Shown here in pieces: positions 24,350-33,127 of a stretch of DNA of 64,000 bases. Source of the stretch: Chlamydiia bacterium (GTDB taxonomy: Bacteria > Chlamydiota > Chlamydiia > Chlamydiales > Rhabdochlamydiaceae); NCBI GenBank assembly GCA_963804085.1, contig CAWDOQ010000022.1:41417-105416 (forward strand). The letters are read 5' to 3'. The notes beneath the pieces were generated by a model that saw nothing but the letters and a program-made list of their open reading frames with translations, ran no database searches and was not told the DNA's origin. How positions within the stretch are numbered: the first letter of the stretch is position 1; the number at the start of each line of letters is the position of its first letter. A program made the translations under genes and the position numbers.

Positions 24350-27325
24350 TCATTCGAGGGATTGGCGCTTGAGCATATCGGCGAAGAGCCCCTTTTGGGC
24401 GGCAAGCTCGTGGAAGGTGCCGGTCTCTATGATTCTGCCGCGGTCGAGCACATAGATGCGGTCGGCATGTTGGATGGTGCTTAGTCTGTGGGCGATCACG
24501 ATGCGGGTTACGTTGATCGAATCGAGGTTGGCGCTGACAAGCTCCTGCGTCTTGTTGTCAAGCGCACTGGTAGCCTCATCGAGAATGAGGATTTTCGGAG
24601 AGGAGACGAGTGCACGCGCAAGATAGAGGCGCTGGCGCTGGCCTCCCGACACTGTGGTTCCTCCCATAGGCATTACAGTATTGAGTCCCATGGGAAGTTT
24701 GAGTAGATCCTCCTCAAAGCCGGAGAGCATGAGCGCTCTTTCAATCTCTTCTACTGTGTAGCTTCCTGCTCCTACGATATTCTCGTATATGCTTCCGGAC
24801 AATATTCCAGCATTTTGCAGCACGGTGCCTATCTGCTTGCGCACGCTGCGTAAATCAAGATCTTGCAGGGCGAGTTCATCGTAGAGCACCTCTCCCTGAT
24901 CGGGAGTCTCAAAGCCCAAAAGAAGGCGCACAAGGGTCGACTTTCCACAGCCGGAAGGTCCTACGATTCCGATCATCTCTCCGGGATTTGCCACCATCGA
25001 AATGTCTTGCAGGATCCACTCCCCTTCTTTGTCGTAGCGAAACGAGATATGCTCAAGAGCCACTGCACCTTTGAGCTTTGCAGGCTGCATCTTCTCCCCC
25101 GGCTTTTCGAGGGGCTCTTGTAAGATAAACTTAGCCTTTTTCCAATAAGGGATCGCTAAAGACTGGGAAAAAAGGGTCTCGAAAATCTCAAGAGCTGCCA
25201 TGACAAAGAGGTTGAATGCTGTCGAAAAGCCTAAAAATGTTCCCATGCTCATACCGGTCATGGGCTGCGCTAAATTAAAAGAGAAATGGCCCTTGAAGAG
25301 AGAGATGGCCACGGAAAAAAGAACCACTGTTAATAAAAGCGGAAAGAGGCGAAAGACTAAGCTCTGCACAGCATTGGCATACTGAATTTTGATATTGAGT
25401 CTTTTCTTCTCTGCAAAAAGGTGTCCCCAGATTCCAAAAAAGCGGCTTTCGGCTCCAGCCACTCTAATTTTTGCAATTCCTGTGATGATCTGGACGACCA
25501 CTCCTTGGATGCGGCTTGAAAGATCTACGACCTTATCCGTCAGCCTAACTTGAATCGTGATGCAGACGGCATAGATCAGGGCGGCTAAAAAGACTCCCCC
25601 GAGCCCTATAAAAGAGAGCTTCCCGCTATATATAAACATCTGGAGAAGATAGAAAAAGCAGTAAACGCCATCTATTACAAGCTTTGTCGCATTAGTGACC
25701 ATATCCGCACGCATCCCTTGCAAGGTGGCAGCGTAATTCATGAGATTGCCCGAAGGGTTTTTGCGAAAAAATGATGCGGGAAGGTCGAGCAGGCGCGCCC
25801 AAAGTGATGTCTCGAGTTGATTTTTTGCTATCCCTTGAATTCTCTGAATAGTGAAGTTCTTCACCAGCAAAAAGAGGGAAGAGCTAAATGTGATGATGAG
25901 TAGGCCCATCGTGAGCTGGGAGAGAAGATTTAGATCTTTTCCAAAGTTCAGTGTGTCAAAAAGGGTCTTCATCGCAAAAGGCAGAAACATATTCAAGATG
26001 CCGCCTAAGAGCGCCACTGTAAAAATCAGGAGAAAGTCTTTTAGGTTATACTTGTAGCACCCTTTGATGAAGTCGATAAATTTGATCACCTTTTTGGGAA
26101 ACCCTTCGTAAAACACATAAGCTTTATCCGAAAGAGAGGAGATAGCCACAGCAAGAGGGACGTGCATCTTTGTGCTGGGGTCGACAAGCTCATACCCTTT
26201 TTTCCTTTGCAGAAGAGCGACAGCTCCTCCCTCCTTCCAAAATGCTAAAATCGGACCATTTGCGCCCCTCCACCATTCGGGACTTAGCGTGATTTTGCGA
26301 AGATAGATCTCGTTATGCGCTGCAATCTGTCTCACCTGCTTGTCCTCATCGTCATTTTCAGAAAGAGGAGGCATCTGAATCTGGATCTTGAGATCTTGAC
26401 AGACAAGGTCGCAGGCTTTGTAAAGAGGGGTCCCTTCGTGAGCGGAAGGAATGCTGATCTTATCATTTAAAACGGAACCTAACTTGTAAAATGCCTCTTG
26501 ATAACGCTCCTCTTCTAAGCGTTTTTTCTTCTGCATTTTCTCAACAGCTTCTTCAAGCCCTTTAGCTCTCTTTTCGCAAAGGCGGTCAAAGATACGCAGA
26601 TGGAAATAAGCGATCGATGAAAAGGATTGATCAAATGCACTCTTTAAAAAATCGTTGGTAAACCCGGTCTCCATCTCAAGATCGCTTTGGACTTGGAGCG
26701 AGTGGGCAAAAGAGAAGGGGTAAAGGAGGTTTTTTTCAGCCGAAAACGTGTAGAGGCTTTCACCTGAAAGGGTGGCGCTTCCTTTTTTAATTTGAAGCCA
26801 GGTGACTCTGTTTTTTTCTTCGGGAGCAAGTGTGTGCGTAAGGGCAAGTTTTGTCCCTTCTTTTGCTTCCACCTTTTCTTTCGGTTTAAAGTAGTAATCG
26901 GCACTCTCTCCCTCTTCGGGAGAAACAAAATAGGAGATTAAGTGTAAGACCCACTTATCTAAGAGAAGAGCAATTGCTTGCGCGCTTGCATCAGATCTTT
27001 GGATCTCCTCTCGCACCATTTGCAACGAAATTTTACGCAGGCGTGCGCGCCTTGAGCTTACGAAAAATAGAGAGTAGCTCTTTGCCTCTTTTGCTAAAGG
27101 TGCAGGAAGCAAAAGATCGCCCGGGGCGACATCTAAAAGGAATTGAGGGATAAAGCTCTTGTCTTGGGGAGAGAACATGAATAGATCTCCCTCCTCCTCT
27201 TCCATCCAGTAAATTGAGGTGGGATCGTCCAAGATAAAGTGGGTGTTTCCTTCAACTACAATCCCCTCTCCCTTTAAAAAAAAGGCGTGGAGTTCGGGTG
27301 GGATTTTAGCGGTTAAATTATACAT
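24350..27325 (-). CDS. NHLP/NHLM bacteriocin system ABC transporter, permease/ATPase (TIGR03797-like)
   Basis: Long N-terminal extension, WWRG..GPILAF, TM domain, GPSGCGKST, SGGQRQR, LILDEATSALD. Confidence 0.88.
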   Translation of the reverse strand: MYNLTAKIPPELHAFFLKGEGIVVEGNTHFILDDPTSIYWMEEEEGDLFMFSPQDKSFIPQFLLDVAPGDLLLPAPLAKEAKSYSLFFVSSRRARLRKISLQMVREEIQRSDASAQAIALLLDKWVLHLISYFVSPEEGESADYYFKPKEKVEAKEGTKLALTHTLAPEEKNRVTWLQIKKGSATLSGESLYTFSAEKNLLYPFSFAHSLQVQSDLEMETGFTNDFLKSAFDQSFSSIAYFHLRIFDRLCEKRAKGLEEAVEKMQKKKRLEEERYQEAFYKLGSVLNDKISIPSAHEGTPLYKACDLVCQDLKIQIQMPPLSENDDEDKQVRQIAAHNEIYLRKITLSPEWWRGANGPILAFWKEGGAVALLQRKKGYELVDPSTKMHVPLAVAISSLSDKAYVFYEGFPKKVIKFIDFIKGCYKYNLKDFLLIFTVALLGGILNMFLPFAMKTLFDTLNFGKDLNLLSQLTMGLLIITFSSSLFLLVKNFTIQRIQGIAKNQLETSLWARLLDLPASFFRKNPSGNLMNYAATLQGMRADMVTNATKLVIDGVYCFFYLLQMFIYSGKLSFIGLGGVFLAALIYAVCITIQVRLTDKVVDLSSRIQGVVVQIITGIAKIRVAGAESRFFGIWGHLFAEKKRLNIKIQYANAVQSLVFRLFPLLLTVVLFSVAISLFKGHFSFNLAQPMTGMSMGTFLGFSTAFNLFVMAALEIFETLFSQSLAIPYWKKAKFILQEPLEKPGEKMQPAKLKGAVALEHISFRYDKEGEWILQDISMVANPGEMIGIVGPSGCGKSTLVRLLLGFETPDQGEVLYDELALQDLDLRSVRKQIGTVLQNAGILSGSIYENIVGAGSYTVEEIERALMLSGFEEDLLKLPMGLNTVMPMGGTTVSGGQRQRLYLARALVSSPKILILDEATSALDNKTQELVSANLDSINVTRIVIAHRLSTIQHADRIYVLDRGRIIETGTFHELAAQKGLFADMLKRQSLE

Positions 27326-32809: not shown

Positions 32810-33127
32810 GTGAAAAAGAAAGAAACGCAAGATGCCCTCGCTAAAAAATGGGCCAAAGTGATTACGAAGGCATGGACAGATGAGAGCTTCAAGCAGAAGC
32901 TACTCAAGAATCCTTCTCTAACGCTACAAGAAAACGGCATCGCTGTTCCTAAAGAGACCAAAATTGAGGTGCATACAGATACCAGCAAAATCGTGCACCT
33001 GGTGATTCCACAAAAACCAGACGAAGAGCTATCCGATGCCGAGCTAAAGAAAGTAGCGGCGGGATTAAGTGCAGGAGCGCCGGGAGCTGATGCTGCTACT
33101 TGGTTCCAAACCGGATTTAAGGCCTAG
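32810..33127 (+). CDS. NHLP (nitrile hydratase-like leader) RiPP precursor
   Basis: AAGGAG RBS plus GTG; KAWTDESFKQKLL.NP...L...G..VP....IEVH..T....HLVIP..P..ELSDAELKKVAAG leader; 20-aa core. Confidence 0.9.
   Translation: MKKKETQDALAKKWAKVITKAWTDESFKQKLLKNPSLTLQENGIAVPKETKIEVHTDTSKIVHLVIPQKPDEELSDAELKKVAAGLSAGAPGADAATWFQTGFKA

Follow-up and report, generated by a model that had tools for sequence, protein, structure and literature searches.

The 64-kb window analysed here, a stretch of 64,000 nucleotides from the genome of a member of the Rhabdochlamydiaceae (Chlamydiota), carries an operon of the type that exports peptides with nitrile-hydratase-like leaders (NHLP), together with a precursor gene transcribed divergently from it. 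The reading that we favour, at a probability of roughly 0.55, is that this operon encodes the only leader-cleaving exporter of the genome, common to seven precursors, and that the adjacent precursor was orphaned by the loss of a YcaO enzyme and leaves the cell unmodified. The C39 peptidase domain of the first ATP-binding cassette transporter (ABC1) would recognise the LxxxxL...Ala-Gly end of the leader and cut behind the Gly, and ABC1, with the HlyD adaptor and the TolC channel, would carry the short core across both membranes, as their families suggest. The second transporter (ABC2), with a predicted non-catalytic C39-like domain and two nucleotide-binding-like barrels, probably pairs with ABC1. 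Five cores containing Ser/Thr together with Cys could be cross-linked by the lanthipeptide synthetase LanM encoded on another contig, in a split arrangement resembling the prochlorosins. The leader in the window appears to be of the subtype that stands beside a winged helix-turn-helix (wHTH)-YcaO cyclodehydratase and a dehydrogenase in the closest relatives. Since no YcaO was found in the genome, xerD lies at the position of YcaO and the core holds no Cys, cleavage and export without modification is the most likely course for the 20-residue peptide.

Chlamydiae live inside eukaryotic cells, and to our knowledge their secreted small peptides are essentially unstudied. The window holds a known exporter of the type associated with peptides made by ribosomes and modified after translation (RiPPs), which is kept under selection in a chlamydia and probably exports seven variable peptides encoded across the genome. 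The cyclodehydratase that belonged to the adjacent peptide gene appears to have been lost, and the core of this gene is subject to turnover among strains that are about 96% identical. The locus offers a concrete, testable case of RiPP systems decaying or simplifying in host-associated bacteria, and it points to phylum-wide pairs of exporter and precursor without a known maturase.

Export operon and adjacent precursor

Gene families were assigned with NCBIfam profiles against their curated cut-offs. Four genes lie head to tail on the minus strand in the order TolC, HlyD, ABC1 and ABC2, and the precursor is divergent on the plus strand. The first gene of the operon, encoding the TolC-like channel (31067-32698), matched Pfam OEP at 98.8 bits and TIGR01844 at 72.6 bits, the latter below the cut-off. 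The HlyD-type periplasmic adaptor (29740-31074) scored 185.2 bits with TIGR03794 (cut-off 156.2). ABC1 is read in two frames. Its N-terminal part (28579-29481), with the C39 double-glycine peptidase and the first membrane helices, gave 334 bits over positions 1-282 of TIGR03796 and 115.5 bits with Peptidase_C39; its C-terminal part (27318-28610), with the membrane and ATPase domains, gave 557.7 bits over positions 282-709. The cut-off of 853.3 was reached solely by summing both halves across a one-base break. ABC2 (24350-27325), an NHLP export ABC permease/ATPase without an active peptidase, scored 725.4 bits with TIGR03797 (cut-off 709.4). Overlaps of 8 nt join TolC to HlyD and ABC1 to ABC2, and all three NHLP transport families (TIGR03794, TIGR03796 and TIGR03797) are present and adjacent. 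The catalytic Cys, His and Asp of the C39 domain are intact in the window and in 12/12 aligned chlamydial homologues. An earlier reading of the DNA letters (the sequence-only reading) had proposed this tolC-hlyD-C39/ABC-ABC operon, an intact peptidase Cys and His, and a divergent precursor with an NHLP leader. The profiles it named for checking, TIGR03793 for the leader included, all reached their cut-offs, TIGR03796 as a sum, and the proposal was confirmed, with the Asp in addition.

No paralogue of the C39 domain, HlyD or TolC was found in the assembly by tblastn (E ≤ 1e-5, >60 bits), so the window would hold the sole exporter of its kind for all seven precursors. The spacer between HlyD and ABC1 contains a GC-rich inverted repeat (29562-29698) with 49-nt arms that are 90% complementary. 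It belongs to a dispersed family found at 66 genomic places by blastn, shows raised depth and many loose ends in a metagenomic relative (X1, described below), and has a counterpart in the closest related cluster, where a repeat-derived open reading frame lies in the equivalent spacer. The repeat probably plays no functional role in the export system.

The domain anatomy of ABC2 was studied by structure prediction. Residues 1-300 were predicted to form two beta-barrels and a long helix (predicted local distance difference test score, pLDDT, 80.7), and the best Foldseek match was the tandem cyclic-nucleotide-binding domains of PKG/PKA-R (E 2.5e-8). Residues 298-440 were predicted to adopt a C39-like fold (pLDDT 84), followed by the transmembrane and ATPase domains. 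Fold matches of this region were the C39-like domain of HlyB (3zua), 3b79, LahT, ComA and PCAT1, with E values of 2e-3 to 3e-2 and template modelling (TM) scores of 0.41-0.64; for the best of these (HlyB C39-like, 3b79, 3zua, LahT) the ranges were 2e-3 to 9e-3 and 0.49-0.64. By sequence, the C39 domain of ABC1 and residues 291-450 of ABC2 were not significantly alike (E 0.16), the likeness being seen by fold search alone, and no invariant Cys or His was found in the C39-like region among 7 aligned sequences. The predicted folds point to ABC1 as the cutting subunit and to ABC2 as a non-cutting partner with extra sensor-like domains, and the pairing of the two genes in the family suggests that their products would work as a pair.

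The precursor reading frame spans 32783-33127 on the plus strand, the likelier start being a GTG at 32810, 7 nt behind AAGGAG. The leader of 85 residues (32810-33064) scored 83.3 bits with TIGR03793 (cut-off 50.9) and carries LxxxxL at -12 to -7 and Ala-Gly at -2/-1, the leader end given in the sequence-only reading. This LxxxxL geometry has been described, in the accessible text of PMC10858898, for NHLP leaders bound by the LahT protease, the RiPP recognition element (RRE) domains of YcaO enzymes and the SrpI halogenase. The precursor also matched part of the NHase_alpha profile (44.5 bits); it is nitrile-hydratase-like without the metal-binding Cys motif, and no Cys occurs in its 105 residues. 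There is an 11-nt overlap between the 3' end of xerD and the core (33065-33127, 20 residues plus the stop codon). The core's monoisotopic mass is 1965.958, its isoelectric point is 5.84, and it contains one Ser, two Thr, one Trp and no Cys. It is short and hypervariable, yet poor in modifiable residues (0 Cys and 3 Ser/Thr of 20). No promoter-like site was found around the precursor gene, and the one terminator-like site was at the level of shuffled sequence.

A word-index protein search with the precursor gave four matches. P0001, on a second contig, has an identical core and a leader with one substitution, and P0002-P0004, near relatives of the window leader, have Cys-rich cores. Metagenome contigs yielded seven precursor-related loci, the best 45% identical, and none was close enough to show strain-level variation of the core. 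In the closely related X1, window positions 33063-33117 (53 nt) are replaced by 168 other letters, while leader and xerD still align; the leader region differs at 7 of 282 positions.

Precursors and maturases in the genome and in related clusters

The genome assembly (2.13 Mb, 24 contigs, 91% complete) contains seven NHLP genes above the cut-off on five contigs, that of the window and six dispersed ones. Each has a GG, AG or GA end, and LxxxxL is present in all seven leaders. Four that were examined (on contigs C2 and C12, and two on C19) stand amid housekeeping genes such as dnaE/bamD, ftsW-murG-murC and accC. Five of the seven cores contain Ser/Thr and Cys, and that on contig C17 has no Ser, Thr or Cys. 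A single LanM gene was found, on contig C19 (L014:7636-10516 = C19:75636-78516), adjoining a gene for a 441-residue flavin adenine dinucleotide (FAD) enzyme and one NHLP precursor. This LanM is in two halves, DUF4135 and LanC-like, which cover positions 3-428 (384 bits) and 448-931 (378.5 bits) of TIGR03897, overlap by 11 nt and meet at an A9 run. An error of the assembly, a pseudogene or a tract prone to slippage may account for the split. The FAD enzyme had no homologue in the loci of the relatives.

YcaO is absent from the assembly. PF02624 gave no match there, and neither did tblastn (E ≤ 1e-3) with three chlamydial YcaO proteins, two dehydrogenases, TfuA and ThiF. Furthermore, there is no dedicated radical S-adenosylmethionine (SAM) maturase in the assembly, as all eight radical SAM proteins match housekeeping equivalogs (HemW, EpmB, MtaB, MiaB, RimO, BioB, LipA and RlmN). 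In the window, the only radical SAM gene (55050-56360) encodes HemW, and no RiPP maturase was found within the 64 kb. Two candidates were considered and rejected. The Ser/Thr kinase at 37938-39077 matched the LanL/LanKC kinase domain weakly (58.5 bits; cut-off 650), is a generic Pkinase and lacks a cyclase part, and was therefore rejected as a lanthipeptide synthetase. The radical SAM gene near the C17 precursor is EpmB beside an IS66 element. The claim that no maturase lies in the 64 kb was thus upheld for the window; extended to the whole genome it fails, LanM and the FAD enzyme being encoded on C19. A search for further leaders and maturases, as the same reading had suggested, returned six precursors and LanM, and neither YcaO nor a radical SAM enzyme outside housekeeping.

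The window peptide was compared with the known RiPP classes. A radical SAM epimerase or methyltransferase, the mark of proteusins in the strict sense, was not found. For a thiazole/oxazole-modified microcin (TOMM, azoline) the assembly lacks YcaO and the core lacks Cys; for a class II lanthipeptide, LanM is encoded in the genome but the core is free of Cys, which makes lanthionine impossible. Of the features of unmodified class II-like bacteriocins, a double-glycine-type leader, a C39-ABC exporter and the absence of a modifying enzyme fit the window peptide, and no immunity gene was identified.

The closest cluster belongs to a genome of the same family (G031) and has the gene order and orientation of the window, with identities of 57% (ABC2), 74% (ABC1), 64% (HlyD), 66% (TolC) and 63% (NHLP leader). 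Past its precursor, G031 encodes a 749-residue wHTH-YcaO, a ThcOx/nitroreductase-type dehydrogenase, a second NHLP protein and a type III polyketide synthase, and the window has xerD where G031 has YcaO. In G393 a wHTH-YcaO likewise stands beside NHLP genes and the exporter, and in G388 a dehydrogenase is added. The sequence-only reading had considered that homologous clusters might already be characterised with a linked maturase; the linked wHTH-YcaO, with or without the dehydrogenase, does occur in relatives of the same family, and the characterisation does not. In G099 (L035/L036, C1:1846001-1874000), ABC2, YcaO-TfuA, seven NHLP genes, ThiF, LanM and a phosphopantetheinyl transferase are followed by a nonribosomal peptide synthetase, ABC1, HlyD and TolC.

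A leader tree was built from 41 leaders and 76 columns, with one truncated precursor and six two-domain proteins left out. The window leader and all eight YcaO-linked leaders fell on one branch (support 96/96), and five dispersed leaders of the window's genome grouped with the leaders that stand beside LanM in G031 and G099 (clade support 92/86). From such neighbourhoods we infer a pairing of leader type with enzyme, in which the window leader would belong to YcaO.

Several observations weigh against this picture of an orphaned peptide exported as it is. The pairing of leader type and enzyme is not clean: 20 of the 38 forks of the tree stay open, and the precursor adjoining LanM in the window's genome sits on a long branch inside the window's clade, so that LanM may also read the window leader. 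The close type-B relatives are Cys-rich, and the Cys-free core could therefore equally mean decay. The genome being 91% complete, its missing portion could hold a YcaO, and a maturase of another class may be present. The FAD enzyme on C19 had no solved relative by sequence and only generic FAD_binding_3 neighbours in the Atlas, and LanM, split at the A9 run, may be inactive.

Among the alternatives, which overlap in part, it is possible, and rather less likely, that LanM from C19 matures the adjacent precursor in trans, in which case the peptide, having no Cys, would leave as a dehydrated linear peptide with dehydroalanine or dehydrobutyrine (Dha/Dhb). The one Ser and two Thr of the core would be available to this enzyme, which the genome does encode, and LxxxxL, common to all seven leaders, is a general docking motif according to the accessible part of PMC10858898. 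The available text of Haft et al. (2010, PMC2887384) states that NHLP cores which lack Cys and adjoin LanM presumably remain in the dehydrated form, and 6/7 of the NHLP cores beside LanM in G099 are without Cys. The position of the LanM-adjacent leader inside the window's clade would also agree with this course. Against it stand the grouping of the window leader with YcaO-linked leaders rather than with those adjoining LanM in G031 and G099, and the split of LanM at the A9 run. Moreover, G099 has YcaO-TfuA beside the same cores, so the Cys-free G099 cores need not be LanM substrates. The earlier suggestion of a peptide exported either unmodified or matured in trans keeps both of its options.

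It is also possible, and about as likely as maturation by LanM, that the adjacent precursor is a relic left by the loss of YcaO and the dehydrogenase, with the exporter kept only for the other six precursors. In the orthologous cluster both enzymes occupy the place that xerD takes in the window, Cys is missing from the core, in contrast to the cores of the type-B relatives, the ~96% identical X1 has other sequence in place of the core region, and no second exporter of the type was found in the assembly. A relic fits poorly with an open frame, a good ribosome-binding site, and LxxxxL and Ala-Gly both intact, with the identical core on a second contig behind a leader with one substitution, and with a leader region only 7/282 positions off X1. 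Export of the unmodified peptide by a shared exporter is the reading that we retain.

One-base break in ABC1 and neighbouring genes

The break in ABC1 is a single extra base at 28608-28609, as seen from homologue tblastn and metagenome contigs. With 12/12 homologues, both tblastn segments meet precisely at 28608-28611, giving a one-base shift and no further damage, and the break site is not a homopolymer. Contigs of four soil/sediment metagenome runs, X1 and X2 among them, were compared with window positions 24000-33500. The X1 relative shows 233 differences in 5553 aligned bases (about 96% identical), and its contig of 7511 nt omits one base at 28609. In X2, some pieces of which are at least 99% alike to the window, a contig begins at 28609 and is preceded by eight loose letters equal to window 28600-28607, indicating that X2 lacks base 28608. 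Both X1 and X2 also carry one extra base relative to the window at 24090/24091, in a neighbouring small gene, and this second difference suggests indel errors or private changes in the assembly. Between the window and X1, 25 of the 27 HlyD differences in 29827-30457 fall at third codon positions (worked out by hand among the listed differences, 40/432), which demonstrates purifying selection on HlyD.

Other genes of the assembly are split as well (MFS, SSF, GH3, LanM and sucA). The two-frame genes at window 50334-53106, L009:13718-15095, L012:11223-12250 and L014:4577-6200 (sucA, a major facilitator superfamily (MFS) gene, a sodium:solute symporter and GH3) suggest that the assembly contains many one-base indels. 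We conclude that the extra base in ABC1 is an assembly error or a private strain change, and that the cluster is not dead and is, at the level of the lineage, under selection. Of the frameshift near 28600 with relaxed selection that the sequence-only reading had considered, the frameshift is there, as one extra base in the window, but X1 and X2 are free of the base and HlyD is under purifying selection. A real frameshift and loss of export, for which the two frames of ABC1, the non-homopolymeric site and the other split genes could be cited, is very improbable against a gene otherwise undamaged relative to 12/12 homologues, two relatives free of the base and also one base off the window at 24091, and third-position changes in 25/27 listed HlyD differences.

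The small gene just mentioned (23704-24344) encodes a hydrophobic membrane protein, is convergent with ABC2 and is likewise in two frames (168 and 79 residues), which the extra base of X1 and X2 at 24090/24091 would join. No family match was obtained for it, and no homologue was found in the clusters of the relatives; its product could be an inclusion-membrane or immunity-type protein. Elsewhere in the window, eukaryote-like or toxin-like repeat proteins are encoded at 15141-19730, 46134-47870, 60276-62635 and 22681-23562, comprising an RHS/YD-repeat protein of 1529 residues, an ankyrin-repeat protein, two leucine-rich-repeat proteins and an F-box-like protein. Three tandem Legionella_OMP paralogues lie at 34079-37890 (125.6-133.9 bits). 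The genome also encodes three TLC nucleotide transporters, and Chlam_OMP6 gave no match in it, a result that is uninformative as the control also matched nowhere. The transporters and the eukaryote-like repeat proteins of the window lend indirect support to a chlamydial identity, as does the presence of a family with genomes of 1.0-1.3 Mb in the phylum sample described below.

Distribution in Chlamydiota and comparison with known systems

The distribution of the system was examined in a phylum sample of about 400 species genomes. The exporter (TIGR03796) was above the cut-off in 44/400 genomes, and the arrangement is accordingly not rare. NHLP was found at E ≤ 1e-8 in 51/400 genomes, 40 of them above the cut-off and with up to 13 copies, LanM at E ≤ 1e-20 in 29/400 (14 above the cut-off), and YcaO at E ≤ 1e-15 in 33/401. 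When these results were cross-tabulated by hand, 33 of the 44 exporter-positive genomes also had NHLP; 17 of the 33 had a LanM or YcaO match and 16 had neither. In five of these 16 enzyme-less genomes the number of radical SAM genes is 8-11, close to the eight of the window's genome.

In one family, the exporter-linked NHLP protein ends 1 to 15 residues past the cleavage motif, with the C39 triad intact (L044:12133-12420, L045:11152-11517, L046:6014-6313, L021, L023, L025 and L026). Four species of this family have a single Tyr after the motif, and an FAD-dependent aromatic-ring hydroxylase gene adjoins ABC2 in two of three loci examined. We would put forward only tentatively, as a doubtful generalisation, that in Chlamydiota the NHLP domain and the peptidase exporter form a stand-alone secretion module without need of a maturase. 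If so, the Cys-free, enzyme-less precursor of the window would be a step towards that state, and the module's products, in place of classical RiPP antibiotics, would be signals without modification or peptides aimed at the host that are set free in the inclusion, or alternatively amino-acid-derived small molecules built on an NHLP scaffold. A separate arrangement was observed in G114 (L043:10596-13969), where, at a distance of about 4 kb from an exporter above the cut-off, five tandem genes encode proteins with two NHLP domains each, followed by a long tail rich in Gly and Ser.

The exporter resembles PCAT1 (4ry2, 6v9z), LahT with bound leader (6mpz) and ComA (3k8u, 5xe8) in having the C39 Cys/His/Asp fused to an ABC half-transporter and, as predicted here, in cutting behind a double-glycine-type site preceded by LxxxxL. 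It differs from them in having two half-transporters, one catalytic and one not, in the N-terminal barrel pair on ABC2, and in the HlyD and TolC partners for a double membrane. With HlyB/HlyD/TolC type I secretion (7sgr, 8dck; 3zua) it shares the tripartite route, and the non-catalytic C39-like domain of ABC2 is like that of HlyB; the cargo of the window is a short peptide with a cleaved N-terminal leader, whereas HlyA is a large protein with a C-terminal signal.

Prochlorosin systems have one LanM, precursors that are unlinked and combine conserved leaders with unrelated cores, and an exporter at a separate locus. The window's genome is alike in its one LanM, several unlinked precursors and an exporter locus apart. 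It differs in having NHLP instead of Nif11 leaders, two leader subtypes in one genome, a LanM that seems to be split, and seven precursors, two of which are unable to form lanthionine; for Prochlorococcus, 29 prochlorosin precursors are quoted in the available text of PMC2887384.

The NHLP leaders, the three-gene export cassette and the LanM- and YcaO-linked forms were described by Haft, Basu and Mitchell (2010, PMC2887384), whose accessible text already notes precursors far from enzymes and species without an identified TOMM or lanthionine enzyme. As far as that text goes, the NHLP/Nif11 systems and the present one are alike in the leader family, the three transport families, the hypervariable short-core paralogues and the LanM or YcaO maturases. 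The host phylum is different, the 'chlamydia group' of that text being Victivallis only. Moreover, the window has TolC inside the operon, and its exporter-linked precursor, with a Cys-free core, has apparently lost its cognate YcaO.

Within the chlamydiae, an antiSMASH-predicted 'proteusin' cluster has been reported for Endochlamydia hydrae (PMC13229535), and RiPP-like clusters appear in a survey (PMC9666466). A literature search joining NHLP and chlamydia returned Haft 2010 only, one joining NHLP and peptidase-containing ABC transporter returned none, one on lantibiotics in environmental chlamydiae likewise none, and one on lanthipeptides in chlamydiae showed nothing relevant by title among the matches listed. 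In the searchable literature, chlamydial NHLP clusters are antiSMASH list items only, although the supplements of those papers may list more. The accessible portions of the Endochlamydia hydrae and survey papers give listed predictions, with no analysis of precursors, exporters, maturases or loss. Compared with all of these, the system itself is known, and the particulars of the locus are the lost cognate enzyme, the Cys-free core, the strain-level turnover of the core and the phylum-wide enzyme-less pairs of exporter and precursor.

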